This document shows positions 1-48,166 of a stretch of 48,166 nt of DNA, piece after piece. Under the pieces are notes generated by a model. It searched no databases. It had not been told where the DNA came from and saw only the letters and a program-made list of their open reading frames with translations. The DNA is from a virus (lineage: Duplodnaviria; Heunggongvirae; Uroviricota; Caudoviricetes): the IMG/VR virus record IMGVR_UViG_2639762987_000003; one strand, given 5' to 3'. Position 1 is the first letter of the stretch, and every line of letters starts with the position of its first letter. The position numbers were made by a program, and so were the translations under genes.

Positions 1-34
1 TAAAGCACTTTTTATATAAATATATAATTATATA
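1..34. repeat. 34-bp terminal overlap identical to positions 48133-48166 (circular join or terminal redundancy)
   Basis: First 34 nt (taaagcactttttatataaatatataattatata) are identical to the last 34 nt of the window. Confidence 0.9.
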
Positions 35-37
35 ATT

Positions 38-625
38 TTATGCCACTTGCCAGAGAGCATCATGCAACTGGATACCTCCATTGCACTGGTTGCCCCAGCC
101 ATGCCAACCATCAGGTAAATCACCGCGAGAAAACAGCTCAATACGAGGAACATCACCTAACAGCCTTACCAGCTTGTCACGAACCACATCAGGCTTCCGA
201 GAATGCTCCAGACGAGGCGATGTAAACGACTGAATGATCCCCGCATCAAGGCGGGTCGGCAATTTGCCTTTTACCGCAAACAAGCAATCTTCACTGTTTG
301 CACGAGTCATATGCCCCATCCCCATCACCAGCTTATCTGGTTGTCGGCTACCACATTTGTTCCATGTGAAGCCCTTCATGGTCATAAGCCTGAATCCCCA
401 TGCTTTCACCACCAGCAACGCTTCTTCTGGCTGAGTCGGAACCCACCACATGGCCAACAAACACGATTCAGGATTAGCAAGCTGCCAGACAGGAATACGA
501 GCAATATCCTCAGCTTTCATCGTTGGATACTTAAAACCAGCTCCACGATTCCCATCCTTACACTTATCTTTGTATTCCCAGGGGGGATCTGCATAAATCA
601 GATTAAACAATGCAATTGCCTCCAT
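38..625 (-). CDS. DNA N6-adenine methyltransferase, MT-A70-like
   Basis: 195-aa ORF with DPPW motif (LIYADPPWEY) typical of MT-A70/Dam-like phage methyltransferases. Confidence 0.75.
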   Translation of the reverse strand: MEAIALFNLIYADPPWEYKDKCKDGNRGAGFKYPTMKAEDIARIPVWQLANPESCLLAMWWVPTQPEEALLVVKAWGFRLMTMKGFTWNKCGSRQPDKLVMGMGHMTRANSEDCLFAVKGKLPTRLDAGIIQSFTSPRLEHSRKPDVVRDKLVRLLGDVPRIELFSRGDLPDGWHGWGNQCNGGIQLHDALWQVA

Positions 626-933
626 GTTAGTTGTGCCTCCGGCGCTGATCTCCGGCAGTCATAACGCTGGCCAGCTCTACAGCAGACACAACGAAAAGGG
701 CACTAACCAGACTGATTAATGCCCTTGCCTGTTGTGTGCCGGATATCGCCCGACAACGCTGTTTTGGTAACACGGCTACAGTTCCGTGCCGCTCCAGCTT
801 TTACCCCTTTGCGGATAACAGGCCCTGCCTGTAACTTAGCCCCACGTTCGCCCGAAATGCGCACCAGGCACGCATAAAGATGAGCACGAAGGAAGTAACT
901 CCACCGCGCTTATCTTTATGTGTGAGAGTGAAT

Positions 934-1009
934 TGGTGGCCCCTACCGGATTTGAACCGATGACCGTGCGATTATGAGTCGCCTGCTCTAACCACTGAGC
1001 TAAGGGGCC
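934..1009 (-). tRNA. tRNA with CAU anticodon; acceptor, D and anticodon arms resemble E. coli tRNA-Ile2 (ileX-type), elongator tRNA-Met not excluded
   Basis: Reverse complement folds as a 76-nt cloverleaf: 7-bp acceptor stem GGCCCCT/AGGGGCC, D-arm GCTC-AGTGGTTA-GAGC, anticodon loop CTCATAA, T-arm ATCGG-TTCAAAT-CCGGT, terminal CCA encoded. Confidence 0.85.
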
Positions 1010-1150
1010 ATATTTGATCTGTTTGTCTGGTGTGGCGCCGCGCACGAAAATCCCAGCCAATAAATTCAGGATTTTTGGGCGCGGCGGCATATCAGACAAA
1101 CATGGTTGATGCGTGCGCCCATGAGAAAAGCGCATAGAATGTTGTAACTA

Positions 1151-1178
1151 TATATTTATATAATTATAGAAATATATA
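1151..1178. promoter_or_regulatory. AT-rich element containing perfect palindrome TATAATTATA (1159-1168)
   Basis: Member of a dispersed AT-rich motif family; lies between the lysis cassette and the tRNA. Confidence 0.5.
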
Positions 1179-1358
1179 TTACTTGGGGCAGTTGATTTCC
1201 CATGCCCTGTTATGAGCCAGAATATCTTTCTTTGTCTGGCGGTCCATAACATCGATATCGTGATCAGTCAGGTAGATGGGCTTTACCCAATCACAGGCGG
1301 TATCAACCACCACCGGGACGCTTCCACGACTCCCGCAGCTCGCGATCAACATCGTCAT
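1179..1358 (-). CDS. o-spanin (Rz1-like outer-membrane lipoprotein), overlapping the Rz-like gene out of frame
   Basis: Short ORF with lipobox-like LIASC near the N-terminus; overlaps the 3' part of the adjacent ORF in another frame at the end of the lysis cassette. Start chosen at an internal Met of the 1179..1388 track ORF. Confidence 0.5.
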   Translation of the reverse strand: MTMLIASCGSRGSVPVVVDTACDWVKPIYLTDHDIDVMDRQTKKDILAHNRAWEINCPK

Positions 1359-1581
1359 CAGCCATATGGTTAACACTCTGATGTACATTCCCCACCTCTT
1401 TTGTCACTTCTATACGCCGCTCCGCAGTGGCTTTTACGGCGGCTGCATTCTCATTAATGCGCTGCTTTTCAGCTTCATCTTCGGCCTTTTCTCGCCCCTT
1501 CATACGACCAAAACCAAACGCGCCGAATGCAACCAATATAATTGTGCCAATAAATGACAAAACGGCCTTCAAACCAGTCAT
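1303..1581 (-). CDS. i-spanin (Rz-like), N-terminal transmembrane helix and charged periplasmic part
   Basis: 92-aa ORF with N-terminal hydrophobic segment then charged/coiled region; start overlaps the endolysin stop. Confidence 0.55.
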   Translation of the reverse strand: MTGLKAVLSFIGTIILVAFGAFGFGRMKGREKAEDEAEKQRINENAAAVKATAERRIEVTKEVGNVHQSVNHMADDDVDRELRESWKRPGGG

Positions 1582-2120
1582 ACCACCACTCGCTCTTTCA
1601 TCCAGCCGTAGACAAACGACTCATTCGCCTCGCGCTTCTCCGCCAGCTCCAGATAGCGTTCGCCCTGCGTACAGTTCAGCGACGTCAGCATCACCCGTTC
1701 GCCGTCTTTTCCCCGATTCCCAAGATAAGCACGCAGCGCATTAATGGTACGTGGACCGATTCGTCCATCTGCATCCAAATCGGGATACAGCTTCCCACGC
1801 AGATTGAACACATTCAGCCAGCGTTGAAGCATTTTGGACGCCACTGTTGGCCCCATATTCACACCGGTATCACACAGCTCTGCGGCAATATCAGAGGATA
1901 ATGCGGCCACCTGATCAAAGCGTGGTCCGTACCAGTAATCAGCCTCAAGGATTTCCAGTGCCTGTTCGCGGGTTAAATCGCGCATATCGCCACGGTATCC
2001 ATGAGCACGGGCAGTGTTCTGAGTAATGCCCCACTTTGTTGGGCCTCCCTTGTCGTCAGGGTGATCCACATAGCCGCCCTCTTTTCCAAGAACGCTGTTA
2101 AAAATCTCATCTTTGGTCAT
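1578..2120 (-). CDS. Endolysin, GH108-type N-terminal domain with peptidoglycan-binding C-terminal domain
   Basis: Motif EGGYVDHPDDKGGPTKWGIT near the N-terminus is characteristic of GH108 lysozymes; sits between holin-like and spanin genes. Confidence 0.8.
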   Translation of the reverse strand: MTKDEIFNSVLGKEGGYVDHPDDKGGPTKWGITQNTARAHGYRGDMRDLTREQALEILEADYWYGPRFDQVAALSSDIAAELCDTGVNMGPTVASKMLQRWLNVFNLRGKLYPDLDADGRIGPRTINALRAYLGNRGKDGERVMLTSLNCTQGERYLELAEKREANESFVYGWMKERVVV

Positions 2121-2403
2121 GATTAAACCCTAATGCGTCAACTATCCGCGCCAGATTGCCCCTGAAATACAGAACAACGATGCAGATAATCAGATTTCCA
2201 ATAACCACCAGCCAGTGGGATTCTTGATAAAGACCGAACACATAACGGAAGGGAACATTGGCGTATACAATGACGTAAATATAAGCCAGAAAGGAAACAA
2301 ATGGACGATGCCTGGAGTCTTTCCGTCGATAAAGCATCAGCGCCATTACTATTACTGTGCAAAGCACCGCATTAATCAGTGCTGACGGGTCACTGCTTAC
2401 CAT
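2107..2403 (-). CDS. Holin-like or antiholin-like small membrane protein
   Basis: Several hydrophobic segments; located between the holin and the endolysin. Start uncertain (internal Met chosen). Confidence 0.45.
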   Translation of the reverse strand: MVSSDPSALINAVLCTVIVMALMLYRRKDSRHRPFVSFLAYIYVIVYANVPFRYVFGLYQESHWLVVIGNLIICIVVLYFRGNLARIVDALGFNHDQR

Positions 2404-2785
2404 TTGAACCCCCTCCACGTAAGCGGGAAAGCATTCCAAAGATGCTACCGAGATCCTGGCTGTTTACGAACGTGAGGATTTTAATGGTCAATGCAGCCAC
2501 AATAACCGCACCAAGCGCATCCAGAGGACGATCGTTGTAGCTGGTCCATTTAGCAAGAAATGAGCCAACTAACGGCGCTCCAATCACTCCAACAATGAAC
2601 GATGTAAAGAAATAGCCAATCAGCTTGAGACGGCTAATATTCACCGCTGTAGCAACATAGAAAACAGCGCCAGCAAATGCCCCGAATACAACGCCGTAAT
2701 CAATACCAGTTGCAATACCAAAAACGCTGGCACCCATCAGGCCACCAGCAGCAACGGCCGTACCGGAAATTGGTTCTGCTGACAT
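2390..2785 (-). CDS. Holin (multi-pass small membrane protein)
   Basis: 131-aa Gly/Ala-rich hydrophobic protein with charged C-terminus, first gene of the lysis cassette. Confidence 0.55.
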   Translation of the reverse strand: MSAEPISGTAVAAGGLMGASVFGIATGIDYGVVFGAFAGAVFYVATAVNISRLKLIGYFFTSFIVGVIGAPLVGSFLAKWTSYNDRPLDALGAVIVAALTIKILTFVNSQDLGSIFGMLSRLRGGGSNGKQ

Positions 2786-2975: not shown

Positions 2976-3167
2976 TCAACTTTTTACCAACTGAACATCC
3001 CGACCAGGACTTCCATAATATTCGCCGATATTCCACTGCTTAAGTTGAGTAATCTTCTCCAACTTAACTCCCACAGAATCCAATTTCTGCCATGTTTTCG
3101 GTTGTATGTGCCTCATTACCCGCTCTGAATATCTAAATACTGCTCGTAGCCTCGCTAAATTGCTCAC
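2976..3167 (-). CDS. Hypothetical small protein
   Basis: 63-aa ORF with GGAGG Shine-Dalgarno 6 nt upstream of a GTG start; overlaps the stop of the upstream gene. Confidence 0.4.
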   Translation of the reverse strand: MSNLARLRAVFRYSERVMRHIQPKTWQKLDSVGVKLEKITQLKQWNIGEYYGSPGRDVQLVKS

Positions 3168-3880
3168 TTGTCGCCTCCTTTACGAATCTGTTCCGCCCAC
3201 TCCTCAAGAGATTTCTCCGCATATTCACCGGACAGGCCATCAATCGGGTGCGGTTCATTAGCCAACTCTTCTTTCGCTGACAAAATCATGCGTGTAACGT
3301 CGAAAACTTCACGCAAAGACTTATTGATAAATCCGTGATTGAACGCAGCAGCAAGACGGCTTGCGGTGTAGTTAATCCCCTCGTTGCGTGCCTCCGCACG
3401 TATTTCAGCCAGGAAAGCATCGGTGGCTGGAATGGGCTTTTGTGGTGATATAGCAATGCGAATTGTCTCAAGGTCTGGAGCTGTTTCCGCTGTTGGCACC
3501 TTGATATAACCCGTCTGCACCCCATTCATGATGAACCTGCGACGGTCATCACATATCGCCTTAAGCCCTGCATTCTCCGCCGCCAGCGCCGCACGACTGG
3601 CCTCCAGTTCAGCAATGCGTTTGCTTTGTGCTTCCCGTTCATTCAGCAACGCCTGCACTACTTCTGGGTTGAAAGCTGCGATATAACGAGCGTTGTTCTC
3701 TGCGTTTTTCTGTCCGTCAAAGCCGGTCCATTTGATAACGTCTTCACATCGTTTATCACCGGGTGTATGCACCGCATATGTACCAGTACCCGACGAAATA
3801 AATGCGACCCATTCGCCTTGTGTTGCCTGTTTTGCTATCTCACGTAGTGCCTGATAGTTAATTGCTGTGCTGTTAGTCAT
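3164..3880 (-). CDS. Ea22/Ead-like lambdoid early-region protein
   Basis: Resembles Ead/Ea22-like proteins by eye (segment YAVHTPGDKRCEDVIKWTGFDG...AAFNPEVVQALL); start set at Met with GGAGG 7 nt upstream. Confidence 0.45.
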   Translation of the reverse strand: MTNSTAINYQALREIAKQATQGEWVAFISSGTGTYAVHTPGDKRCEDVIKWTGFDGQKNAENNARYIAAFNPEVVQALLNEREAQSKRIAELEASRAALAAENAGLKAICDDRRRFIMNGVQTGYIKVPTAETAPDLETIRIAISPQKPIPATDAFLAEIRAEARNEGINYTASRLAAAFNHGFINKSLREVFDVTRMILSAKEELANEPHPIDGLSGEYAEKSLEEWAEQIRKGGDK

Positions 3881-4217
3881 TCCAGGCCTCCAGCTCGTTC
3901 TGAATCTCCTCGTCAACCTCGTCATTGGTGGCGTCTTCGTTCAGATGGTCGCGCGCCTCTTTGAGATACTGTTCACGGCGTTCGTGGTACCAGGCTGAGA
4001 ACTCCGGCGACCATCCTCGATTAGCCCCCTGAAAATCTACCATCGCATTATCCTCGGCCATACGCTCGACCATGCAATCCGCGGTGTTCAGTGCAACCTC
4101 ACGGATGTACCCCCGCAGGTCGCGCTTACGCCAATACGGGCTATATTTTGAGTCGCAGCGGCCTTTAAATTCGACGGTCCAGCGACGGATGCAGCGTGCG
4201 TTAAGTGATTTGCTCAT
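3873..4217 (-). CDS. Hypothetical protein
   Basis: 114-aa ORF in a tightly packed minus-strand operon. Confidence 0.45.
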   Translation of the reverse strand: MSKSLNARCIRRWTVEFKGRCDSKYSPYWRKRDLRGYIREVALNTADCMVERMAEDNAMVDFQGANRGWSPEFSAWYHERREQYLKEARDHLNEDATNDEVDEEIQNELEAWND

Positions 4218-4219
4218 AG

Positions 4220-4831
4220 TTATGCTTCCTTAATACGCTTAAACTCAATTACCCATACCCACGGGTTAGATAGCCAGTTCTCTTGCCCGTAAATACCGCG
4301 CCAGATATCACCAAAGCCAACGCGATAAACAGCTTCCGGCGGTGTAATCTTGTACGTCACCGGAGATGCGCCTTCTGCTTTAGCATCTGCCTCGCTCATG
4401 TCATGCAGCCGCTCCACACGCACGTCGGTAATTTCCAGCAAAATACGCGAAGCCCAGCGCGGCATGTGAATCGACGGGGTCCAGCCCTCAGCTGGCTTGC
4501 TACTATCTGAGTAATCAGCCTTGTAATCACACAGTTCAGAAGCCAGAGAGACACCATCTTTGATTTCCTGAATGACATCGTTATCCAGCCAAAAAGCGTT
4601 GAATGTTTCACGGACCCATATGCGATCACCAACGTTACCGAACGGGCATAAACCATGTTCCAGTGCATCCATAACGTGGGTATAGACACCATTGCGTTTC
4701 TTTGTCGGTTTACGGATAACCAGGCAGTTATCGGCCCTGACATTTTTTACAGGTCGGCGAGTCTGCGTCTTCCTTCCTTCGAGGATGGCCCTAACCATAT
4801 CGTCATTAAAAACAACACCACGTTCTTTCAT
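4220..4831 (-). CDS. Hypothetical phage protein with conserved N-terminal GRKTQTRRP motif
   Basis: 203-aa ORF; motif recalls a conserved phage protein family but the family cannot be named with confidence. Confidence 0.45.
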   Translation of the reverse strand: MKERGVVFNDDMVRAILEGRKTQTRRPVKNVRADNCLVIRKPTKKRNGVYTHVMDALEHGLCPFGNVGDRIWVRETFNAFWLDNDVIQEIKDGVSLASELCDYKADYSDSSKPAEGWTPSIHMPRWASRILLEITDVRVERLHDMSEADAKAEGASPVTYKITPPEAVYRVGFGDIWRGIYGQENWLSNPWVWVIEFKRIKEA

Positions 4832-5082
4832 TTAGAAGCCACCTTGTTCAATTTCCGGCGACAAGACACGCAATCATCAGGACTCTCAAAAGTGTCTGGC
4901 TCACGGTAATCACCAAAATACATCCAACGGCCGCAAATGCTGGTTACTTCACCTTCATTAAAATAATGATGTTTATTCGCCTTCATTGGCCTGACCCATC
5001 CGGCATTTTTCTTGCTCACTTCAACTCCTCCCGACGACGTTCCTGAAGCTCTAGCATTGCGGCTCGGAAATCCTGCCACCAT
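4828..5082 (-). CDS. Hypothetical small Cys-containing protein (true start may be the internal Met at 4986)
   Basis: ORF overlaps the upstream gene by 67 nt unless the internal start is used. Confidence 0.35.
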   Translation of the reverse strand: MVAGFPSRNARASGTSSGGVEVSKKNAGWVRPMKANKHHYFNEGEVTSICGRWMYFGDYREPDTFESPDDCVSCRRKLNKVASK

Positions 5083-5381
5083 TCCTCATCTGCAACGGGG
5101 GTGTTCCGCTCCAGCACCTTGTCCGCATCAGCGATCAGGTTTGCCAGACTCTTGTCTGAAATCTTCGTTACCGGAGTCGTTGGTTGCTCAACCTGCCCGA
5201 TAGGTTTTATCGTGCTCAAAAGGAGGCGACGGCGGGAAAGTGGTGCCCCACAACGACGGCCATCTTCCTTGCGATATGTTTCTTTCGGACCAACACACCA
5301 GGTTGTCGGCGTTTCGCGCAACTTCACTCTTTTCTCACCATCATTGGTAATGATTATTCCGGTATGGGTTTTGATGCTCAT
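5016..5381 (-). CDS. Hypothetical protein
   Basis: 121-aa ORF in operon context. Confidence 0.4.
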   Translation of the reverse strand: MSIKTHTGIIITNDGEKRVKLRETPTTWCVGPKETYRKEDGRRCGAPLSRRRLLLSTIKPIGQVEQPTTPVTKISDKSLANLIADADKVLERNTPVADEEWWQDFRAAMLELQERRREELK

Positions 5382-5680
5382 GCCACAGCCCCTCTCAACG
5401 GCTTAACTTTGGCTAATAAGGTGTTAAACAACATGGAGTTAGGATTCATGCCAAATGGCAATTCCGGTTTAGCGGAGTAGTACAGGCAACCATTTATTTT
5501 CCTGGTTGTTATCTGTCCTTCGGCAACCATGCTTCTCAGTCTGCAACGCATAGAGTTCTGCGACACACCAATGTGCTCCGCGATTACGTCCACTTTTGAA
5601 CATGGGTGATCGGTCAGGAAATTAATCACATCTTGGGGGTTAATAATTTTGCGTTTCATTGTCGAGGCGTCCTTATACAT
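5378..5680 (-). CDS. Hypothetical protein, possible small DNA-binding regulator
   Basis: 100-aa ORF directly downstream of an AT-rich motif and a hairpin terminator. Confidence 0.4.
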   Translation of the reverse strand: MYKDASTMKRKIINPQDVINFLTDHPCSKVDVIAEHIGVSQNSMRCRLRSMVAEGQITTRKINGCLYYSAKPELPFGMNPNSMLFNTLLAKVKPLRGAVA

Positions 5681-5704
5681 TTGTATAAATATATAATTCT
5701 ATAT

Positions 5705-5726
5705 ACGGCGGGAGACGTCCCGCCGT
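5705..5726 (-). terminator. Perfect 9-bp GC-rich hairpin (terminator or RNA stability element)
   Basis: acggcggga-gacg-tcccgccgt, 10 nt after the stop of the 5737..6804 gene; no clean U-run, so termination efficiency is uncertain. Confidence 0.45.
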
Positions 5727-5736
5727 AGGCTTACTG

Positions 5737-6804
5737 TCAGGCTTTCAATAGCGATTCTTTTAGATATCGGGCATCAGCCAGGGCGTTTGGAGTAATCTTG
5801 CGAACCCATGCATTACGGGTTGGACTCCACTTAAAGGCGCGTGATTTAAGCAGCGAACGAATGTTTGCCTCTGGTTTGCCAGGGAAATAAAACAGGATGC
5901 GGTTATCCTCTGGATCTATCTCCATAGAAAAGCCGTCGTATTCTTCGCGCTGTGCTCCTGTTACAGACTTGACCGATTCAAGCTCCTTAATACGGCTCTG
6001 TAGTCGTTTGATTTCGGCGTTATTGTTGCTCAGTGCGTATGAAGGGAATCCGATGTGCCCACAGAAATCTCCGGCCAGTAACTCTTTGGCTTCGCTTTCT
6101 GTAAACCTGAGATCGATTAATGCAGAAAGCTGCTGTATTTGGTCTTTTTTGTATTTGCGAATGGCCTTATTTGCGGCCTTCATTTTGACGTGTGACTTCA
6201 TGCAGCCTTGCAGCTTACGAAGCAACTTAAATAGCGCATCAGGATCATCAGACGAAATTCCATTACGACCAACACCTGCGGCTTTGCTCTCGTAGTGTGA
6301 TGCTTTACTTTCGCATTCAACAAACGCTTTTCTGAATAACGCATCAGCTTTAGACAAACGGCGGCGATGGCCTTTCGCGCTATAATGGTCAACTAAAATC
6401 GGCTGGCCTAACGGGATCACATCCAACAGGTCATGCGCTCGCTTATGCGCTACCGCACCTTCTTTTCTGGCTTTTTCTGCACGAGCAATATATCGGGCAA
6501 GACGCGCGTTCTGGCGTTCCTGATAGGTGTTTACGTAATCATCTCCGCGCTGCTGCTGTTCAAGCCATGCTTTGCGCAGATCTTCTGTTACGTCCACCAG
6601 CTCCGCAGGGATACAACCAGTTTGGGCTTCATAAGAGTAACCATCCTCATAGATACGCCCATCGTCTTCAACAAAGAAAAAGGTTTCGTGCTCATCGCTT
6701 TTGACCATACGACCATTAACATGGCGTAATAGGTAGCCAGTATCAGTGCTTAACAGGCTGTTAGGGTTGTTGATCCAGTCAGAAATAATTACTTGTTTAT
6801 TCAT
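5737..6804 (-). CDS. Hypothetical 355-aa protein, first gene behind promoter cassette A
   Basis: Start set at the ATG 8 nt downstream of the cassette's GGAG; the longer track ORF (from 6858) translates the conserved leader. Confidence 0.6.
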   Translation of the reverse strand: MNKQVIISDWINNPNSLLSTDTGYLLRHVNGRMVKSDEHETFFFVEDDGRIYEDGYSYEAQTGCIPAELVDVTEDLRKAWLEQQQRGDDYVNTYQERQNARLARYIARAEKARKEGAVAHKRAHDLLDVIPLGQPILVDHYSAKGHRRRLSKADALFRKAFVECESKASHYESKAAGVGRNGISSDDPDALFKLLRKLQGCMKSHVKMKAANKAIRKYKKDQIQQLSALIDLRFTESEAKELLAGDFCGHIGFPSYALSNNNAEIKRLQSRIKELESVKSVTGAQREEYDGFSMEIDPEDNRILFYFPGKPEANIRSLLKSRAFKWSPTRNAWVRKITPNALADARYLKESLLKA

Positions 6805-6912
6805 CAGATTTCTCCGGTTTAACCAGGGCGGGTATCGCTCGGTTTCGGGTATAACCATAGGAAATTTTTTCCCACCTGTAAAGCACTTTTTATATAAATC
6901 TATAATTATATA
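6801..6912 (-). promoter_or_regulatory. Promoter-leader cassette copy A: TATAATTATA palindrome, -35 TTTACA, 17-bp spacer, -10 TATGGT, ~45-nt leader, GGAG, ATG
   Basis: Near-identical to 16776-16877 and 48055-48166; lies about 60 bp downstream of the Q-like gene. Confidence 0.6.
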
Positions 6913-39891: not shown

Positions 39892-41748
39892 CTATATGGT
39901 TACGCCTTTACTTATAACTCTACGGCGTCTTCTACGTATACCTGACGAGTTCTGCACATACACATTACCTCGCATTTCCTGTTCGGCAAGCCAGTTAAAA
40001 TTAGGGTTCAGAATTTCCATCGCGGCAGTTGCATAGTTACGGCAATCAAGAGGCTCGTTACGCTCGTAGACTTTTACCCACTTTTCTTTTGTCTGCCCAT
40101 TTTTATATTCAAATATTTTCTTCTCTGATAATAATCCTTTAAAGTATTCGGTATCATATCCTCTGTCAGAATCTAATGGGAAATGCATATAACCAGGACC
40201 AGGATCATGTAGTTTAATTCTTGCCATGATGGTCCCTTTACCATCATCAACCCCCAAATTAAACAACATAGCACCCACACGGTTATTATTACTTGGCTTT
40301 CCTATAAACGGTAAACCTACCCCACCACGCCCCCTGATAGAGTATATTCGCCTTGATTCTCTCGGCTTAGTAAAGCGATATACCTCTGTCGTAAAATGCC
40401 CACCAGAGTCAATACAAACGGAAGAAATCTGTAATTTTCGACCGTCACGGAATGACCAGCTACGGAGTAAGTATTCATCAAGTTGTTTCCAGACAACATC
40501 TTGTGCGGGATCACCTGGGAATATTTTATATTCTATCCCCCATGACTCCTTACCTTTTCCCCAACCGACCAATTCACAAACTAAATACGTGTCCTGTACG
40601 TCAACACCAGCACTTAACAATAAAACATCATCTGGTAAAAACTCTTCAAACCTTATTCTGCGTTGCAACAAGTATTCAGGATCGATATCGTCTTTAGCAT
40701 CCTCTTTCCATGGCTCACCCAGCTTAAGGTTAATAAACTCCATTAATCCATTTTTATCGCGGTTTCTGGTTGCTTCCGTAAATTCTTCAACCAGCTCTGA
40801 CAATGCAACCCACGGGGAGTAAAGACTGTTAATATGAAAACCAACAATACCTTTAACTCCAGTATGTTCAGCTATCCATACCCCCTTCGCCAACCAATCA
40901 ACGTCTGGTTTACCAGATCCGCGCATAATCCCGCCGCACTCACAGCACTCATATCTGGCCGTTTCCGGTAACGCCTCACCTGAATCGCTCTTATCCCATC
41001 TGACTTGCGACCATTTCATCACCTGCATGGTGCCACAACATGGGCAAGGAACATGGTAGTAACGCTGATCGGAGAGCTTAAACCACTTGTGGATTTTGCT
41101 CGTTTCCTCCAAAACAGGAGTAGAAACAAAAACTTTCTTACGATTATGAAAGTTGGTAGTACGCTGAATACCTAGTTTTAGTGGGTCGCCCTCCTGCGTC
41201 ACACCGTAACGATCAATCTCATCAGCTAACAGTATTCGAATTGGCCTGGATGCAAGACCTGCTGGGGAATTAGCACCAACAAGTGCTATATATCCACCAG
41301 CGTAATGCTTCATACGTATAGTCGTGCTGGACTTTTTGGCTGCACCGCGCCCCTCTTTCCCTTCATGCAGCTTGTGTTTCAAACCAGGGGAATATTTGAA
41401 CGTCGGATCAATACGCTCCTTTGAAAAAGCCTCAGCCGCCTCTACCGTTGGATAAATCATCAACTGAGGAGATGGCTCCTGATCTGCAAAGTAACCCATA
41501 ACATTTAGCTGTAATTCGGATTTACCAATTTGCGAGCTACATTGCATCACTACTGTTTCTGTATCAGCGTCACCAATAACATCCATTGGTTCACGCAAAT
41601 ATGGCACTCGGCTTGTACGCCACGGCCCTGGCTCTGGAGACGTTCCCGGCGCTACATGACGATACTTATCAGCCCATTCGGAAACAGTTAGCCGTGATTT
41701 AGGGCGAAGCGCACGGAAAAAAGCGGTGCTCCATACTGTTTCGCCCAT
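39892..41748 (-). CDS. Terminase large subunit, lambda gpA-like
   Basis: 618-aa protein; N-terminal region resembles the gpA terminase family (TVSEWADKYR...). Confidence 0.85.
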   Translation of the reverse strand: MGETVWSTAFFRALRPKSRLTVSEWADKYRHVAPGTSPEPGPWRTSRVPYLREPMDVIGDADTETVVMQCSSQIGKSELQLNVMGYFADQEPSPQLMIYPTVEAAEAFSKERIDPTFKYSPGLKHKLHEGKEGRGAAKKSSTTIRMKHYAGGYIALVGANSPAGLASRPIRILLADEIDRYGVTQEGDPLKLGIQRTTNFHNRKKVFVSTPVLEETSKIHKWFKLSDQRYYHVPCPCCGTMQVMKWSQVRWDKSDSGEALPETARYECCECGGIMRGSGKPDVDWLAKGVWIAEHTGVKGIVGFHINSLYSPWVALSELVEEFTEATRNRDKNGLMEFINLKLGEPWKEDAKDDIDPEYLLQRRIRFEEFLPDDVLLLSAGVDVQDTYLVCELVGWGKGKESWGIEYKIFPGDPAQDVVWKQLDEYLLRSWSFRDGRKLQISSVCIDSGGHFTTEVYRFTKPRESRRIYSIRGRGGVGLPFIGKPSNNNRVGAMLFNLGVDDGKGTIMARIKLHDPGPGYMHFPLDSDRGYDTEYFKGLLSEKKIFEYKNGQTKEKWVKVYERNEPLDCRNYATAAMEILNPNFNWLAEQEMRGNVYVQNSSGIRRRRRRVISKGVTI

Positions 41749-41753
41749 GAGGT

Positions 41754-42305
41754 TTATTCTTCCTGCTTAATAAATCGGGATTCCTGGAGCGCCTGAAGCG
41801 CAAAATTAATCTCGTCTTCAATAATGCGTTCGATCTCCCTGGCTGTTTTGCCTTCACAACGGGGAGCTGCTCTTGGAGCAATACTAAATAAGCGGCTACG
41901 CAATTCATTAGCTGCCAGAAATGCATCATCCCTGACCGCATCTTTAGCGATGAGAGAGCCTTCCTTTTCTTCAAATTCAAGGCGTTTCAGCTTTGCCTGA
42001 TAAATTTTTTCTGCGGTCTTAGCCTTGTTGAATTGCACCGCAACACCGGAAGTACCACCAGCTAATCCGGCATCATCAGCGGGTAACTCTGGTTGTTCCG
42101 AAGATATCCCATGCCCTCTTTTTCCATTTTCAGCAGATACCCCACGACCAACCTGTCGGCTCGCTTCATAAGCCGCACTGGCTTTATCAAAATCCAGCTT
42201 GCCGCTTTTCAGCACTGGAATGCGACCGGAACGACAGAGCTTCGTAACCATTGCCGGAGAAATACCTTTCCGGCGGGCAAACTCTGACTTACTGACGATG
42301 GCCAT
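41754..42305 (-). CDS. Terminase small subunit, Nu1-like (N-terminal HTH)
   Basis: N-terminal HTH-like segment (SKSEFARRKGISPAMVTKLCRSGRIP); start overlaps the upstream stop (TAATG). Confidence 0.6.
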   Translation of the reverse strand: MAIVSKSEFARRKGISPAMVTKLCRSGRIPVLKSGKLDFDKASAAYEASRQVGRGVSAENGKRGHGISSEQPELPADDAGLAGGTSGVAVQFNKAKTAEKIYQAKLKRLEFEEKEGSLIAKDAVRDDAFLAANELRSRLFSIAPRAAPRCEGKTAREIERIIEDEINFALQALQESRFIKQEE

Positions 42306-42895
42306 TACTTGCAACCATTAGCAAGATACTGAACAAATCCCTCATGCGTTTCATGCGCGTCGTGGTACTGACGATAAACATCCAGCAACAATGCAATTTC
42401 CATATCCGTCGCGGGAATACGTTCTTTATCAATAGCCAGGTACTTAATTTGAACAACAGGGGAAGAATTATCGTCTTCTTCCTGCGGCTGTTCATCGCTT
42501 AACATTTCGTCAAGCTCTGCATCATTAAACCCAAGCAGATCAATATCAAAATCATCATCCATTAACTCTTTGACTTCTTCGGCCAGAAGCTGCATATCCC
42601 AGCCAGCATTTAAGGCCAGCTTGTTATCTGCAATCCTGTACGCCTTCTTCTGTTTTTCAGAAAGGTTACTCAACCGAATCGCCGGAACTTTATCCATTTC
42701 CAGAATTTCGGCTGCTGCAAGCCGCCCATGCCCCGCAATCAGTTCATTCTTTTCATCGATCAGCACAGGATTAGTGAAACCGAACTCACGGATACTGTTC
42801 ACCAACTGTTCAACTTGCTCATCTGAATGAGTCCGTGAATTTTTGGCATATCTGAGCAGCTTACCGACTGGTAAATATTCGATTTTTAGAGCCAT
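42305..42895 (-). CDS. ParB N-terminal (nuclease-like) domain protein
   Basis: 196-aa protein; paralogous by eye to 45562..46185 (shared GHGR and KKAYR(I/L)ADN...LNAGWD segments). Confidence 0.65.
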   Translation of the reverse strand: MALKIEYLPVGKLLRYAKNSRTHSDEQVEQLVNSIREFGFTNPVLIDEKNELIAGHGRLAAAEILEMDKVPAIRLSNLSEKQKKAYRIADNKLALNAGWDMQLLAEEVKELMDDDFDIDLLGFNDAELDEMLSDEQPQEEDDNSSPVVQIKYLAIDKERIPATDMEIALLLDVYRQYHDAHETHEGFVQYLANGCK

Positions 42896-43452
42896 TTTTT
42901 AACCGCCATAACACAACAGGTTAAAGAAAAATGTTTAACTTATTGATACTAAAAGAGAAAAATGACGATCTTTTTACTCATAAAAAATCACACAAACCAG
43001 CATAATTATCTGGTTTTATTAAGTTTTTATAAGTAAAAAGGATCTTCCGATGGTGTTTTGGTTAAAAGATTGGATGTATTTGCATGATTTATAAAGATTT
43101 TTATCAAAACAGCCTTGCATTGGTTAAAGATCTGCGCGTATCTTGATGATCTAAAAGAAAATTCTCTACTTTCTTTTCACCATCACAAGCACAGCAAAAA
43201 ATCACGTTTTCCCAATATTTTTCAATGAGATGGGTAAATTTCTTTTACCGCAACTTTTAACCTAACTTTTTTCACGTTTAGCTAGCCGAACATCGGGGTT
43301 CGAATGACCCGCATCCAACGCTTTTGGCCAGAAGGACCCAATTCTGCCGGACGATGAAACGATGCTCGTGCCCACCCACAGACAGCCAGCGAGCGACGCT
43401 ACAGAACACAGTGAATACACTCTGCATAACAACACCATCAACCACACGATGA
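42896..43452. other. Long intergenic region upstream of the packaging genes; candidate packaging or regulatory site
   Basis: About 555 bp without convincing ORF; AT-rich half contains four GATC sites (about 42969, 43041, 43128, 43152). Confidence 0.3.
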
Positions 43453-44172
43453 TTAACGAGAGAAAGTCTTAGAAAGAATGTCATCAATAGCCTTTGTGAC
43501 TTCATCAGCAAACGCATCCTCACCAGCACGCAGCGCCACGCCATGCCAATCAAGACGCTGCGAATAGTTAGGTTGCTGGATAAACGTAAGGATCAACGTA
43601 GGACGCCGCCCAACGCGCTGCCAGACGCCTGGTTGAAGCGGGTTACTTGTACCAGGTCGAACAACAAAAAACTCCGTAGGCTTGCCCTGACGGCGATTTT
43701 GATGCGCATCTCGCTGAACTCTTAGGCCAGATAAGACCTGCTGTAATTGCCCCCGCGAAATATTCCCGTATTTGTCCAGCTTTGCACCGGGACCAGGAGC
43801 AAGCTGCCAGCCGTTAGGCAAATATCCACCAGCCCTTAGCGCCCCTTCTGAGCGTTTGTACTGTCGTTGTCCACCTTCGATTTGCGGAGTCAACGTTACA
43901 GGGGCTGGCGTTCCTCCCCATTCACGAGCATACACAATGGCTGTAGGATCACTCTTCTTTGCGGCCAAAACGTAAGTAGAGTTCTGAATCCACGGCGTGG
44001 GCCTGTCAAATACCCGATTAATTTCATTCTTAATCGCAGCCTGAGAAGCCTTTGCCGTTCTGGTTGCCGCAAGCGCCATTGCGAACGGCAATTCGCGTTC
44101 TTCAAGGCGCTGGAGTTGTCGTTGAATATCCTGAGAAGAAAAATCCATCTTTATCTCAATTCTGTCAGCCAC
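43453..44172 (-). CDS. Hypothetical protein
   Basis: 239-aa ORF between the methyltransferase fusion and the intergenic region. Confidence 0.45.
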   Translation of the reverse strand: MADRIEIKMDFSSQDIQRQLQRLEERELPFAMALAATRTAKASQAAIKNEINRVFDRPTPWIQNSTYVLAAKKSDPTAIVYAREWGGTPAPVTLTPQIEGGQRQYKRSEGALRAGGYLPNGWQLAPGPGAKLDKYGNISRGQLQQVLSGLRVQRDAHQNRRQGKPTEFFVVRPGTSNPLQPGVWQRVGRRPTLILTFIQQPNYSQRLDWHGVALRAGEDAFADEVTKAIDDILSKTFSR

Positions 44173-44188
44173 CAGCGCCTCCTACACA

Positions 44189-45568
44189 CTACTTAATCAA
44201 CGGCCGGAAAGCCGCCAGCACATCATCAGATCGTCCGATTGTTGAACCACCAGGCAACGGCAACTCAAACTCAAAACGAACAGCTTTCTCCAGACTCGCC
44301 CAACTAAGGGAATCATCGTTAATGACGTGCAAATACCAGCTCTTACAGTTGAATATTGACCGCTTAATCCTGAAACCATGTACACGACACAACTGCTTCA
44401 CTTCATCATCAGAGTGAAACTTCTGGTAAAACCAGTGCCCCTTCCGGTACAACGCGGTAAAACCGTTATGATCAATAAAATAAAGCCGGCTTTTGGAACT
44501 CGCCGCTTGTGTTTGTTTCAGGACGGTTTCCAGCTCTCCACGGCTACGGCCAGAAAAGAATATTGACCCACCAGCTTTACACAAGCCTTTCAGAACCGTC
44601 AGAACGGACCATTCAGCCTCGACACTATCGACCGAGTTCAAAACGCTATCGCAAATCACGTAGTCGTAACGCCCTCGCGTTTTTAAGTCGTCCACCAGCG
44701 TATCAATCATCCGGTTTGTTGCGGTCCTATCCAGAGTGTTTCCAGCGCCCTTACGGCGGAAAAGCTCGAGATCATGCAGGTTATATCCCTTTGCCCTGAG
44801 CATTCGCGCGTAGTCTCCCTGCCCCGAACCAAAATCAATTCCTCTTGGCGTCTTGGCAATGATCGGGAGGATCAACGACTCATACAGGTTTGATTTCAGG
44901 CTGCCACCATTACGCAACCGCATAAGCTGCGCATACGTCTGGATGTATGTTGTTTTCTCCAGATGAGAATACTCAAATACACCATAAGTTTTATTCAGAT
45001 AACTTTGGTATTTTTCCTTCTCAACATCAGGGATCACAAACACCGTTAGCGGTGTGCGCGTCATCTTCGCTGCTAATGCATACTGAGCACAGTGAATAAC
45101 CTCGCCAGACTGAGTAGCAACACAACCACCCCACGGACCATACTTGATAACCAGTTCCGCTATGTTCTTTCGAACATATGCCATTTTCGCGCGCATATTG
45201 CCTGAGATCTGGCTTGCCGATACCTGAACAAAACCATGCTTATCTTCCAGACCGGACACCCTGCAACGCTCATCTCCGCTATCAAAATCCGTTCCGTTAT
45301 GCAGTTGGTTAAACCGTACTTCGTCGTATACCGTCGTTTCACAGGGCAACACATACACCGCAGCACGCGTTATTCCCAACTTACGTAGCGCCTTCGTCCT
45401 TTGGTGTCCCGCCACCAGCAAATCGCCGCGCACTATCAATGGCTTCACAAGCCCCAGCTCCCTGACGCTTTCCGCCAGCCTCGCAAGATCATCCTCACCG
45501 ATAAAACGCGGGTTATATTCCGCGCCGCGTAGGTGCGTTATGTCGTAATTGAGGTGAAGCATCAGCAC
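44189..45568 (-). CDS. ParB-like N-terminal domain fused to class I SAM-dependent methyltransferase
   Basis: N-terminal ParB-like segment (LVAGHQR) and methyltransferase motif I (IDFGSGQGDYARML). Confidence 0.65.
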   Translation of the reverse strand: MLMLHLNYDITHLRGAEYNPRFIGEDDLARLAESVRELGLVKPLIVRGDLLVAGHQRTKALRKLGITRAAVYVLPCETTVYDEVRFNQLHNGTDFDSGDERCRVSGLEDKHGFVQVSASQISGNMRAKMAYVRKNIAELVIKYGPWGGCVATQSGEVIHCAQYALAAKMTRTPLTVFVIPDVEKEKYQSYLNKTYGVFEYSHLEKTTYIQTYAQLMRLRNGGSLKSNLYESLILPIIAKTPRGIDFGSGQGDYARMLRAKGYNLHDLELFRRKGAGNTLDRTATNRMIDTLVDDLKTRGRYDYVICDSVLNSVDSVEAEWSVLTVLKGLCKAGGSIFFSGRSRGELETVLKQTQAASSKSRLYFIDHNGFTALYRKGHWFYQKFHSDDEVKQLCRVHGFRIKRSIFNCKSWYLHVINDDSLSWASLEKAVRFEFELPLPGGSTIGRSDDVLAAFRPLIK

Positions 45569-46185
45569 ACCTCCCCAGCCAGCAATGCGGATACAAATCC
45601 GATATAGCTGCCATTATCATCAACATAACGAGACACCGCGCAGTCAAAACGATCCGCTTCCTCATCCGTTGCCGGGATTTTATGACCTCCAAATGACAGG
45701 TACTGAACTTTTACGCCTGATTTGGCCTCATCCTTCTCAAATGGGATATCCATACCCTCTGTGTCATCGTAGACCGCCGCACTCAATAAGTTATCCAGTT
45801 CGCGCTGAGTAAAACCAATTGAGTCCAGAGCAAAATCATCGGCCGCAAGATCTGCAAGCTCCGCGCTTAACAACTCTTCATCCCAACCAGCATTCAGCGG
45901 AATACGGTTGTCGGCCAGACGATATGCCTTCTTCTGATTCTCCGTTAGCCCTTCCAGAACAATGCAGGGAACCTCATCCATCCCCAACTGAGTGGCCGCA
46001 GCAATTCGACCATGACCAGCAATTACAACGTTGTTCTCGTCTATCAGGATCGGATTAGTCCATCCGTACTCCTGTATGCTGGCAACAATCTGATCTACCT
46101 GCTCCACGGAGTGTGTGCGAGCGTTCTTTTCATAACCAATCAACACAGAAAGTGGTAAAGAAACCACATTAAGATGTTTTGTCAT
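45562..46185 (-). CDS. ParB N-terminal (nuclease-like) domain protein, paralogue of 42305..42895
   Basis: 207-aa protein with the same conserved segments as 42305..42895. Confidence 0.65.
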   Translation of the reverse strand: MTKHLNVVSLPLSVLIGYEKNARTHSVEQVDQIVASIQEYGWTNPILIDENNVVIAGHGRIAAATQLGMDEVPCIVLEGLTENQKKAYRLADNRIPLNAGWDEELLSAELADLAADDFALDSIGFTQRELDNLLSAAVYDDTEGMDIPFEKDEAKSGVKVQYLSFGGHKIPATDEEADRFDCAVSRYVDDNGSYIGFVSALLAGEVC

Positions 46186-46749: not shown

Positions 46750-46840
46750 TGTTACCAGTTGGGATCATTCAAACTTAAACGGAACAGACTCTGCACCAAT
46801 GGCAATCGGTTTATCTTCTTTCTTTTCCATAACATCACCT

Positions 46841-46870
46841 GAAAATAAAAGCCCCGCGACACCGCGAGGC
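46841..46870 (-). terminator. Rho-independent terminator after the cassette-C proximal genes
   Basis: On the minus strand, 8-bp GC stem (one G-U) with 4-nt loop followed by UUUUAUUUU. Confidence 0.6.
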
Positions 46871-46878
46871 TGTAAGAG

Positions 46879-47043
46879 TTACTTTCGATAGAAATCAAGG
46901 CGCATTTGCTCCCGCTTAAGCCGAAAAGCTCTCTGCGCCACTAAGATGCGCCACAGGACACCAGCAATAACCACCAGCGAGATACAAAAACACACGGCCA
47001 CAATCATCAGAAAAATGCCAAGACCATTCATGAAACTATCCAT
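46879..47043 (-). CDS. Candidate 52-aa small membrane protein (below the ORF-track cutoff)
   Basis: Hand-translated MDSFMNGLGIFLMIVAVCFCISLVVIAGVLWRILVAQRAFRLKREQMRLDFYRK; GGAGG 13 nt upstream; overlaps 47028..47240 by 16 nt. Confidence 0.3.
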   Translation of the reverse strand: MDSFMNGLGIFLMIVAVCFCISLVVIAGVLWRILVAQRAFRLKREQMRLDFYRK

Positions 47044-47240
47044 TTTTCAATGAATACCTCCAGTAATATCAAGAGATACGCCGTACCCAGCGCGGTTCCT
47101 ACCGATATAGCTAAGACAAACCTCAAAGATAACGAGGTGTCTTTCGCTTTTCTCCAGACGTAAGCGCCAGCCAGAAATACCAACAAATCTCTTATTGGAA
47201 GCGGAAACCAGAACAAATCACTCGGCATAAGCACGATCAT
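47028..47240 (-). CDS. Small membrane protein
   Basis: 70-aa hydrophobic ORF with start overlapping the upstream stop. Confidence 0.4.
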   Translation of the reverse strand: MIVLMPSDLFWFPLPIRDLLVFLAGAYVWRKAKDTSLSLRFVLAISVGTALGTAYLLILLEVFIEKWIVS

Positions 47241-47517
47241 CTTCCGCTGCTGATTTACACGCCGCAGTTACTGATATATTGATAACCGGTGCGCTAATCG
47301 TGATGGACGACTCTGTCGGTTGACGCGATATAACTGAACGATGGTTATCAATGAAGTCCACAATCTCATTCAGGCATTCTTTAGCTGCCTCATCGTGACT
47401 TTTTCCGTATGCTTCACGGAGGACTTTCATCCTCATCATTGCTCCGTCACATATAGTCGAAAGCGCGTAAAGCACATCACTAACCGCCATTTCTTTTTTG
47501 GTGCTTGTCGAAGGCAT
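47218..47517 (-). CDS. Hypothetical protein
   Basis: 99-aa ORF in the cassette-C proximal operon. Confidence 0.45.
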   Translation of the reverse strand: MPSTSTKKEMAVSDVLYALSTICDGAMMRMKVLREAYGKSHDEAAKECLNEIVDFIDNHRSVISRQPTESSITISAPVINISVTAACKSAAEDDRAYAE

Positions 47518-47591
47518 CCCATGTTCTCCTTTGTCTGGATGTAAAAAAGCCCCGGCAATTGCCGAGGCTCGTTGTTCGTTATCGTTACGGT

Positions 47592-47792
47592 TTAATGCTC
47601 GCGTCGTCCGGCGACAACTTCGGATTTGTATTTCAGGTCGCCCAGCAAGAATTGCAGTTTAAGCATCTTTGCCGCCGTGTAGTTCCCTGATTCCACAACC
47701 TCTTTCATGAGGTCATAAACGGCCGCAACATCATCAGCCAGGAACTCTTTGCGTTGCTGCTCAGTCGCACGTTTGAAGGAAATACGCATCAC
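47592..47792 (-). CDS. Hypothetical small protein
   Basis: 66-aa ORF, start overlaps the upstream stop. Confidence 0.4.
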   Translation of the reverse strand: MMRISFKRATEQQRKEFLADDVAAVYDLMKEVVESGNYTAAKMLKLQFLLGDLKYKSEVVAGRREH

Positions 47793-48058
47793 TCATCATC
47801 TCCTGCCGCACATACAACCTCACAAAAAAAATCAGCAGAATGTTTCTCCTTGAACGAATGACGCTCAAAACCGCACTCAATATCAGGCGCAAAAACATCC
47901 ACCACATACGGTCTTTCAGAATGTTTGTTTTCCCAACGATAAACCGTAGTGACGTTGAAATGTTTTAACGCTTCACGGAACTCAACGCTGCCCGTCAGGT
48001 TTTTTGAGGTCAGGTATTGCAGGAGGTTTTTTACTACTTCACGGTCTTGTACTTTCAT
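47789..48058 (-). CDS. Hypothetical protein, first gene behind promoter cassette C
   Basis: Start set at the ATG 8 nt after the cassette's GGAG (MKVQDREVV...); the longer track ORF translates the leader. Confidence 0.5.
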   Translation of the reverse strand: MKVQDREVVKNLLQYLTSKNLTGSVEFREALKHFNVTTVYRWENKHSERPYVVDVFAPDIECGFERHSFKEKHSADFFCEVVCAAGDDE

Positions 48059-48166
48059 CAGATTTCTCCGGTTTAACCAGGGCGGGTATCGCTCGGTTTC
48101 GGGTATAACCATAGGAAATTTTTTCCCACCTGTAAAGCACTTTTTATATAAATATATAATTATATA
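48055..48166 (-). promoter_or_regulatory. Promoter-leader cassette copy C (continues across the circular join into positions 1-34)
   Basis: Same -35 TTTACA (48136-48131) / -10 TATGGT (48113-48108) / leader / GGAG as copies A and B; one mismatch in the AT-rich end; TATAATTATA at 48155-48164. Confidence 0.6.

Follow-up and report, generated by a model that had tools for sequence, protein, structure and literature searches.

Phage P1 is a myovirus that persists as a low-copy circular plasmid equipped with partition and addiction functions, and operators for its repressor are dispersed over the genome. Its immI region encodes C4, an antisense RNA directed against a small open reading frame (ORF) and a downstream antirepressor, with two C4 segments complementary to the mRNA around the small-ORF start. 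In phage N15, centromere sites are scattered among regulatory regions and the prophage repressor acts on the replication gene. Here we describe IMG/VR record IMGVR_UViG_2639762987_000003, a stretch of 48,166 nucleotides (nt) from a virus of the Caudoviricetes (hereafter, the window). We consider it very probable (roughly 0.88) that the window is the complete circular genome of a phage-plasmid: a temperate myovirus that, as a prophage, exists as a low-copy circular plasmid. This reading is based on closure of the circle, collinearity with closed plasmids and a phage genome, protein domains, RNA families and sequence motifs.

The window resembles P1 in the lifestyle predicted from its genes, in its dispersed repressor operators and in its immI module, where two C4 segments are likewise complementary to the mRNA around the start of a small ORF. 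It differs in being half the size of P1, with unrelated head and tail genes. Rather than the P1 RepA with its iterons, it encodes an IncFII-superfamily RepA; rather than ParA, ParB and parS, a type Ib ParA and a small partner; rather than Cre and lox, a site for the host Xer recombinases; and its repressor is lambda-CI-like, not C1-like. For two features described below, dispersed repeat arrays and an operator in the repA leader, N15 is the nearest precedent. Unlike the window, N15 is a linear siphovirus genome with a protelomerase, for which domain scans of the window gave no match, with SopAB (type Ia) and with a different replicase.

Closure of the circle and the probable plasmid state

The first and last 34 nt of the window (TAAAGCACTTTTTATATAAATATATAATTATATA; 1-34 = 48133-48166) are identical, as an earlier note on this DNA had reported from the letters alone. 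The overlap is exactly 34 nt, with none longer, and the likelihood that it arose by chance is negligible. Removal of one copy leaves a unique circle of 48,132 base pairs (bp). The exact 34-mer is restricted to the two ends, though it lies inside a 121-nt repeat with three copies; the other two copies match at 88% and 95% (42-nt register). For the join we used a 4,000-nt junction query consisting of the last 2,000 nt followed by nt 35-2034. This query aligned over its full length to two closed circular E. coli plasmids, p853EC2 (NZ_CP040921.1; 99.975% identity) and pKFS-D13_3 (CP125027.1; 99.95%), and the deposited genome of Yersinia phage vB_YpM_39 is collinear through the join. In the closed plasmid records the 34-mer is present as a single copy that is contiguous on both sides. 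Since the junction is contiguous in closed plasmids and in a phage genome, we conclude that the window is a closed 48,132-bp circle and that the overlap reflects assembly closure.

The identical ends had been ascribed either to a circular assembly or to terminal redundancy. The first explanation holds, but the second does not: identical ends would also be seen if the virion genome were linear and had a true 34-bp direct repeat at its termini, yet these ends fall in a promoter cassette, and the terminase and packaging region is about 5 kb away. The window has lambda-type head and packaging genes, and phages of this type normally package from a cos site. Together with the single contiguous 34-mer in closed plasmids, and with a deposited phage genome that ends at 43309/43310 instead, these observations make a terminally repeated virion genome extremely unlikely. 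The vB_YpM_39 record whose ends map to 43309/43310 is marked circular, and its start point may be arbitrary. At 43294-43312, in an AT-rich intergenic region, there is a GC-rich near-palindrome (CGGGGTTCGAATGACCCGC) that might possibly be the cos site.

Along its whole length the window corresponds to p853EC2 in three collinear pieces, the sole interruption being an IS2 insertion of p853EC2 that the window lacks. As the window is fully covered by p853EC2 minus IS2, it carries no host flanks. Profile searches of all ORFs of at least 150 amino acids (aa) on both strands recovered no recombinase gene, and no integrase, serine recombinase, transposase or protelomerase domain was detected. Among 5,426 complete E. 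coli genomes, 72 (approximately 1.3%) contain the structural module, at 82 plasmid places and one chromosomal place; the single chromosomal place did not appear in the listed complete-genome matches. We also considered NZ_OZ282456.1 as a chromosomal copy and rejected it, as the record is a plasmid. An integrated prophage cut from a chromosome by the window boundaries would be in keeping with that one place among 83. However, with every base aligning to closed circular plasmids, a 34-nt overlap at the ends, a join contiguous in three independent records and no integrase, we regard this explanation as having next to no chance of being correct. The proposal of the earlier note, a complete circular phage-plasmid rather than an integrated prophage, is therefore upheld.

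That note had also claimed that the window has neither an integrase nor an att-like signal. The first part is correct, but the second overlooked a conserved dif-like XerC/XerD site with a 6-bp spacer (GGTGCCGATAA-CGTCCA-TTATGTTAAAT; 17654-17681, minus strand), located between a HigB toxin gene and the origin-side ORFs. The site has two mismatches in 22 specified bases, both in the XerC arm, and a perfect XerD arm; the next best candidate in the window has five mismatches. It is conserved in E. coli, Yersinia-phage and Salmonella relatives and is degenerate but syntenic in a Serratia relative. Judged by its sequence, its role would most likely be host-mediated multimer resolution, and it offers the simplest account of how multimers are resolved in a plasmid that lacks a recombinase of its own.

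A near-consensus dif-like site with a 6-bp spacer, conserved across the family, could in principle also serve integration. In that case the element would, besides its plasmid life, facultatively integrate at the chromosomal dif site through host XerCD, as do integrative mobile elements exploiting Xer recombination (IMEXs), and the one chromosomal place would be an instance. Against this, the other 82 of the 83 places are plasmids, Xer sites are common on plasmids for multimer resolution, and one record from E. coli ATCC 25922 is a 94-kb plasmid of dimer size, as might be expected if multimers have to be resolved. We therefore judge facultative integration to be very unlikely.

Virion genes and the family to which the element belongs

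The prediction that the window encodes a full set of virion and lysis genes was borne out by PHROGs, Pfam and the RefSeq names of near-identical plasmids. Full-length genes are present for terminase, portal, protease, decoration protein, capsid, sheath, tube, tape measure, baseplate, fibre, holins and endolysin. The lambda-type head and packaging genes (34046-42314, minus strand; PHROGs and RefSeq names) encode connectors, decoration protein D, a ClpP-like protease, portal, a W-like protein and a putative small terminase, with capsid E at 35556-36599 and TerL at 39892-41748, both on the minus strand. A ParB/Srx-domain protein (42305-42895, minus strand) heads the packaging operon. The P2-type contractile tail and baseplate genes (24506-34046, minus strand; PHROGs, and Pfam Tail_P2_I, Phage_P2_GpU and Phage_base_V) encode I, J, W-like, U, V, D and X proteins, tape measure, chaperone, tube and sheath. 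The lysis cassette (1303-2785, minus strand) was assigned from the RefSeq annotation of near-identical plasmids. It contains, all on the same strand, two holin genes (2390-2785 and approximately 2107-2403), a GH108-type endolysin gene (1578-2120; NCBIfam holin-associated muramidase, below cut-off) and, downstream, a 92-aa ORF that is spanin-like by position (1303-1581).

The combination of a lambda-like head with a P2/Mu-like tail had been singled out as a notable mosaic, which our comparison does not support. Vibrio phage vB_VpaM_XM1 has the same gene order, from a ParB-like nuclease (at the position of the ParB/Srx-domain protein) through the terminase subunits, W-like adaptor, portal, Clp protease, decoration protein and capsid E to sheath, tube, tape measure, X, D, V, J, I and fibre, and its capsid protein is 45% identical to that of the window. 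Annotation notes in the vB_VpaM_XM1 record cite genes of X29, phi 2 and Rostov7. Unlike the window, vB_VpaM_XM1 encodes two integrase-family genes and lacks plasmid replication and partition genes. The shared morphogenetic order thus indicates that the head-plus-tail combination is an old, conserved unit; the variable part is the lysogeny module.

Near-identical elements are abundant. PLSDB contains 42 plasmids that match the structural half at 98-100% identity with a coverage of 80% or more. Several assemblies of E. coli ATCC 25922 contain a family member as a 48,488-bp plasmid (NZ_CP009073.1); one further record from this strain (NZ_CP032086.1) is 94,204 bp long and contains two copies, either a dimer or an assembly artefact. 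The Yersinia phages vB_YpM_39, vB_YpM_41 and vB_YpM_44 (OR545053-55), whose recorded host is Y. pestis EV76, show 97-98% identity to the window along most of the circle. Taken together, these phages and the unnamed 46-52 kb plasmids of E. coli and Salmonella share 97-100% DNA identity with the window over nearly the whole circle, along with gene order, regulatory motifs and the Xer site. IMG/VR contains additional copies and more distant relatives. Among phage records, only the Yersinia phages and two predicted E. coli prophage fragments cover more than 11% of either half of the window; the remaining phage matches listed are to the P2-like fibre and cover about 6% or less.

No published name or description of this family was found in the literature, including the supplements of phage-plasmid papers. 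The phage-record searches did not reveal relatedness to the named phage-plasmid types P1, N15, SSU5/pHCM2, pSLy3, pKpn, pMT1, pCAV, AB_1 and cp32. The current phage-plasmid typing tool recognizes ten types, and the family is not among them; no family accession was found in those of its supplements that were searched. Membership of the pSLy3/SSU5 group (papers place pSLy3 in the SSU5 supergroup) was considered and rejected, as searches of phage collections returned no such element. We conclude that the element adds one more member to a family of E. coli phage-plasmids that is abundant and apparently unnamed. It does not represent a new kind of element, nor is it a notable mosaic.

More distant relatives, Serratia plasmid pJSRIV006_2 (NZ_CP074139.1) and the IMG/VR contigs L020-L025, resemble the window in having an IncFII-superfamily RepA with a countertranscript, an Xer-like site, a toxin-antitoxin pair, C4 with a Rha antirepressor, a CI-like repressor, ParA and a partner, a Ref nuclease, DUF1064 and a similar lysis cassette. 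In contrast to the window, pJSRIV006_2 has a lambda-like non-contractile (siphovirus) tail and a different head, its proteins are 25-67% identical to those of the window, and its repeat motif and operators differ. Across this wider group, conservation is seen in the plasmid module and exchange in the virion module.

Within the window, the sole recent exchange is at the fibre end (20232-24475). Here, the middle part of the fibre gene has 92-97% DNA identity to fibres of P2-like Peduovirus phages, and a remnant of 170 nt (20232-20400) has matches in over 1,300 E. coli chromosomes, to a gene named "phage tail protein". A hexapeptide-repeat acetyltransferase gene (20485-21048, plus strand) occupies the place at which close relatives have a Hin-type invertase gene adjoining repA. 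Thus, where the Yersinia phages and many family plasmids carry an invertible fibre segment and the invertase, the window carries the P2-like fibre and the acetyltransferase. It also differs from family members in the accessory region at 14.2-16.8 kb.

These differences bear on whether the element might be a domesticated or defective phage-derived plasmid, such that this copy no longer makes infectious particles. The exchanged fibre region and the missing invertase would be in keeping with decay, as would the insertion sequences that interrupt tail or terminase genes in other family members. However, the structural, packaging and lysis ORFs of the window are full length and of the same sizes as in the deposited phage, and both the tail fibre (948 aa) and the tail-fibre assembly protein are intact (21012-24475, minus strand; phage-record matches and Pfam). 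An indirect sign of virion production is that genomes 97-98% identical to the window were deposited as phages, with Y. pestis EV76 as host. We consider a defective element unlikely.

Several points weigh against a plasmid prophage of an active myovirus. A circular assembly could also stem from replicating or concatemeric phage DNA, and the physical state of the element is predicted from sequence. With the join lying inside a three-copy repeat, it is solely the collinear alignment to long closed records that excludes a mis-join. The fibre of this copy has been swapped for a P2-like one and the invertase seen in relatives is missing, and infectivity of this copy is predicted from genes. In addition, one of the 83 places in complete E. 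coli genomes is chromosomal, and the regulatory assignments described below, both protein-motif pairs and antisense control, are deduced.

Replication, segregation and lysogeny control

The replication genes have the layout of IncFII plasmids such as R1 and R100, with a PF02387 RepA, a DnaA-box origin downstream, and a long leader containing a hairpin that would be targeted by a candidate countertranscript with a terminator. In the window, repA (19041-19889, minus strand) encodes an IncFII-superfamily initiator that matches Pfam PF02387 (IncFII_repA; 1.2e-43) and NCBIfam NF040977 (231.7 bits; cut-off 70), with model positions 1-266 aligned to residues 14-275 of the 282-aa form. Its scores fall below those required for the canonical incFII equivalog TIGR03474 (77.9 versus a cut-off of 446.9 bits) and for PRK13750 (81 versus 478). 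Of the IncFII-type repA with a DnaA-box region that had been noted earlier, the superfamily assignment and the DnaA box stand, but the protein is not a canonical IncFII RepA. Since relatives are annotated at 277-278 aa and NF040977 begins at residue 14 of the 282-aa protein, the true start of repA is probably at 19889, and the 325-aa ORF that reaches 20018 appears to be over-extended by 43 codons. The extra codons of the public 325-aa annotation (19890-20018, minus strand) correspond to leader hairpins.

Downstream of repA, an oriR-like region (18760-19040, minus strand) contains a DnaA box followed by an AT-rich stretch, much as the DnaA box of R1 oriR lies downstream of repA beside AT-rich DNA. 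The box (TTATCCACA; 18891-18899, on the repA strand) is approximately 140 nt past the repA stop codon and is the only perfect box among five matches to a looser DnaA-box pattern in the window. Upstream, a candidate repA promoter (TTGACT-16-TATGAT; 20176-20203, minus strand) matches the consensus at 10 of 12 positions; if used, it would produce a leader of about 290 nt.

A candidate countertranscript to this leader (19899-20014, plus strand) consists of a promoter, a hairpin and a terminator. On this strand, the -35 element is CTTGCGT (19899-19905) and the -10 element is TATAAT (within 19920-19932); an apical hairpin (GGGAGTTGTCGAGGCGCCC) lies at 19928-19946 and a strong terminator at 19981-20014. 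The Yersinia phage, the plasmids from Salmonella and Serratia and the IMG/VR relatives all retain this architecture. In these relatives the sequences of the lower stem and terminator are entirely different, yet pairing is retained, and 7 of 21 predicted consensus pairs show compensated changes, six of them in the terminator stem. From its sequence, the RNA looks like one of the CopA/Inc-RNA type. No Rfam family, CopA and related families included, matched this region at the gathering score or at E<=1. The predicted loop is UUGUCG, compared with UUGGCG in the CopA/Inc RNA family. The window also differs from R1 and R100 in that no CopB homologue was identified in it.

Segregation would depend on ParA and its partner, a pair that had been recognized from the sequence and that our analysis substantiates. 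The parA gene (10770-11426, plus strand) encodes a small Walker-type ATPase of 218 aa, a size typical of type Ib, with matches to Pfam CbiA, ParA and MipZ; the match to NCBIfam ParA_partition is below cut-off. The Walker domain begins at residue 6-12, with no N-terminal DNA-binding domain. A scan of genome contigs for relatives of ParA gave no useful result. The partner (11470-11718, plus strand) is an 82-aa protein in which a disordered, basic tail at the N terminus is followed by two helices at the C terminus. An AlphaFold model shows the disordered tail and the two helices with a pLDDT of approximately 80, and we suspect from this model that the partner adopts a ParG-like ribbon-helix-helix fold. 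A PDB sequence search, a profile search, Pfam (E<=10), Foldseek of the model and hhalign against ParG yielded no significant ribbon-helix-helix match; hhalign placed partner residues 40-72 on the ParG ribbon-helix-helix domain with a probability of 1%.

Eight intergenic sites in the window contain arrays of three to five 8-bp units (TTATATAA, ATCTATAA, TTATAGAT), each unit being an AT-only palindrome; no such arrays occurred in 100 shuffles. Two four-unit arrays of the TTATATAA/TTATAGAT type (10645-10676 and 10718-10749) lie 93 and 20 nt upstream of parA and are candidates for the centromere and operator; the array closer to parA covers the likely -10 element. The sister sites are at 12-35, 1148-1179, 5673-5704, 6890-6913, 11426-11457 and 16855-16886. 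One of the eight arrays lies between parA and the partner gene, three lie at a fixed distance upstream of TTTACA-17-TATGGT in the 121-nt cassettes, and two precede other transcription units. Each cassette (6792-6912, 16757-16877 and, on the minus strand, 48046-48166 continuing into 1-34) comprises an array, the TTTACA-17-TATGGT promoter, a ribosome-binding site, a start codon and the first codons of a gene. The three cassettes head a DUF3560 gene, a 126-aa ORF and an 89-aa ORF that opens the long operon at the rightward end. The assembly break falls within one cassette copy.

A Salmonella relative with a 91% identical partner has the same 8-bp motif at the same places. In the Serratia relative, with a partner of 38% identity, a different 8-bp motif (TTTAAATA type) occurs upstream of parA and at four other intergenic sites, and other lineages, including IMG/VR relatives, have lineage-specific 8-bp variants at equivalent places. 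Since the motif varies by lineage alongside the element, the arrays should be read by a single element-encoded protein. The ParA partner is the best candidate, given its position, the tandem 8-bp boxes (which are typical of ribbon-helix-helix proteins) and its ParG-like layout. This is an assignment that we infer, because the cI-parA-partner block co-evolves as a unit; among the relatives compared, no natural case was found in which the CI-like protein and the ParA partner diverged independently.

Type Ib systems such as TP228 ParF/ParG and omega of pSM19035 likewise combine a ParA of about 215 aa that lacks an N-terminal DNA-binding domain with a small, basic-tailed partner that has a helical C terminus, and have tandem short repeats over the par promoter; the spread of repeats to other promoters is omega-like. 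The window differs from these systems in that its partner has no significant sequence or fold match to ParG or ribbon-helix-helix families, and in that its 8-bp unit, to which binding is predicted, is an AT-only palindrome.

The stability functions include a HigBA-type pair, toxin gene first with a 1-nt overlap (16932-17584, minus strand). The HigBA-like addiction module proposed from the letters is confirmed by a Gp49/HigB toxin (17231-17584; Pfam PF05973, 5.7e-23) and a helix-turn-helix (HTH) antitoxin (16932-17231; HTH_3, 3.9e-10), both on the minus strand. An RNA of the ryfA family (11942-12238, minus strand; Rfam RF00126, 141.8 bits, gathering score 80) marks a timP-type small-toxin locus that contains a 40-codon hydrophobic ORF (MKKYCMCIFIVVTGALF...). 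By analogy with timP/timR, we take this locus to be a type I toxin candidate, and it is possibly a second addiction module, of type I. It is absent from the Salmonella and Serratia relatives.

Lysogeny appears to be controlled by a CI-like repressor (9499-10155, plus strand) whose gene diverges from a leftward early operon. The protein contains an HTH_3 domain and a C-terminal S24-like domain that is below threshold (Pfam score 18.4; cut-off 23.3) and that, judged by eye, seems to lack the catalytic Ser and Lys. Because of this apparent loss, induction would depend on an antirepressor. Only one LexA-box match (CTGT-N8-ACAG) was found, inside a structural gene and at chance level; no convincing LexA box is present in the window.

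The palindrome ACCAC-N5-GTGGT has eight matches in the window, compared with 0.59 expected, and from their sequence and distribution these sites are probably operators of the CI-like repressor. Two candidates lie in the intergenic region between cI and the early operon (9344-9358 and 9447-9461), one after cI (10198-10212) and one in the repA leader (20055-20069); a candidate with one mismatch (12536-12550) is just upstream of the immI promoter. The Yersinia phage and the Salmonella relative have syntenic counterparts of the copies at repA and in the cI region. Relatives also keep the placement of one operator in the repA leader and of another just upstream of the promoter for C4 and the antirepressor.

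The P1-type immI module (12575-14179, plus strand) lies downstream of the par genes. All of its elements are on the plus strand: a promoter (TTGACA-17-GACACT; 12575-12603), an isrK-like leader (12610-12682; Rfam, 65.8 bits, gathering score 50), the C4 antisense RNA (12707-12795; Rfam RF01695, 77.8 bits, gathering score 45), a 63-aa icd-like ORF (12849-13040) and an antirepressor with ORF6N and Rha domains (13037-14179; Pfam). The C4 segment CATTGTGT (12753-12760) is complementary to CACAATG (12845-51), which spans the ATG of the icd-like ORF at 12849, and the segment GTTCCAA (12767-73) is complementary to TTGGAAC (12799-805). Further upstream, at 12635-56, there is a second C4 target pair. All three relatives searched have retained C4.

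The remaining genes are accessory. The leftward early and accessory operons (3164-9324, minus strand) encode an Ea22-like protein, DUF1064, a Ref-family nuclease, hypothetical proteins and the DUF3560 protein (5737-6804, minus strand). A tRNA-Met (CAT) gene lies at 934-1009 (minus strand). A variable accessory region (14214-16768), replaced in other family members, contains ORFs of 211, 141 and 126 aa and an 83-aa HTH ORF, none of which matched any family or defence system. A defence-system scan of the accessory ORFs returned only methyltransferase matches, among them an MT-A70 family DNA methyltransferase (38-625, minus strand; Pfam PF05063, 1.4e-22; PADLOC MTase_II). A further region (43453-46185, minus strand) contains a 239-aa ORF and two ParB/Srx-type ORFs, one encoding a ParB_N plus methyltransferase protein (44189-45568) and the other a ParB/Srx plus methyltransferase-like protein (45562-46185). 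Including the protein at the head of the packaging operon (42305-42895), there are three ParB/Srx-domain proteins, two of which are joined or adjacent to methyltransferase domains; with the MT-A70 enzyme, the window therefore has several DNA methyltransferases.

Possible coupling of plasmid maintenance to phage control

We propose that the element works as follows. RepA would fire the origin, and the countertranscript to the repA leader would limit RepA synthesis. ParA and its partner would segregate copies by way of the 8-bp arrays, host XerCD would resolve multimers at the dif-like site, and HigBA, perhaps together with the small-toxin locus, would kill plasmid-free cells. The CI-like repressor would hold the early operons, the immI operon and possibly repA through the ACCAC-N5-GTGGT operators, and induction would proceed through the antirepressor once C4 repression is lifted. 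The lambda-like terminase would then package the DNA, and lysis by holin and endolysin would free the contractile-tailed virions.

One motif suggests a further layer of regulation. The sequence CCTCGACAA, which in the sense orientation is complementary to the countertranscript's invariant apical loop, has three exact occurrences in the window, compared with about 0.4 expected from length: in the repA leader (19933-19941, minus strand), at parA (10764-10772, plus strand) and at a 93-aa ORF (5659-5667, minus strand). A further position is listed at 47505-47513 (minus strand). At parA and at the 93-aa ORF at 5659, the motif abuts the start codon. All relatives carry (C/T)(C/T)TCGACAA at the start of parA and of one or two other genes, with ParA proteins that are 52-55% and RepA proteins that are 29-35% identical. 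The copy-number RNA might have these messages as additional targets in trans; the alternative is a shared 5′ cassette that is read by something else. The motif is near-invariant, so covariation cannot decide on trans pairing.

Plasmid maintenance and phage control may thus be wired together by three shared cis-elements, namely the 8-bp arrays, the operator in the repA leader and the target of the countertranscript loop, a tentative scheme that we think is rather unlikely. The 82-aa partner might bind the arrays that lie at the par promoter and before five or more other transcription units, acting as a global regulator inside a phage, in the manner of omega of pSM19035 or KorB of RK2. The prophage repressor might sit on the repA-leader operator. 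Lastly, the invariant loop of the countertranscript (UUGUCGAGG) might pair in trans with the CCUCGACAA sequences located at the start codons of parA and of one or two further genes; if so, translation of these genes would follow copy number.

As a discovery the element is ordinary, since public records already include near-identical phage genomes and closed plasmids, and phage-plasmids have been well described. The regulatory wiring, which we infer, is the only part with some novelty. Members of the family are routinely annotated as cryptic, non-mobilizable plasmids, and the family is absent from the ten types of the typing tool; therefore, plasmid surveys can miss viral spread. The family is also of practical interest, as it is present in the quality-control strain ATCC 25922. 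With two motif sets, a countertranscript and a host Xer site in a compact layout, it offers a tractable model for how a phage may couple copy control, segregation and the lysis-lysogeny decision.

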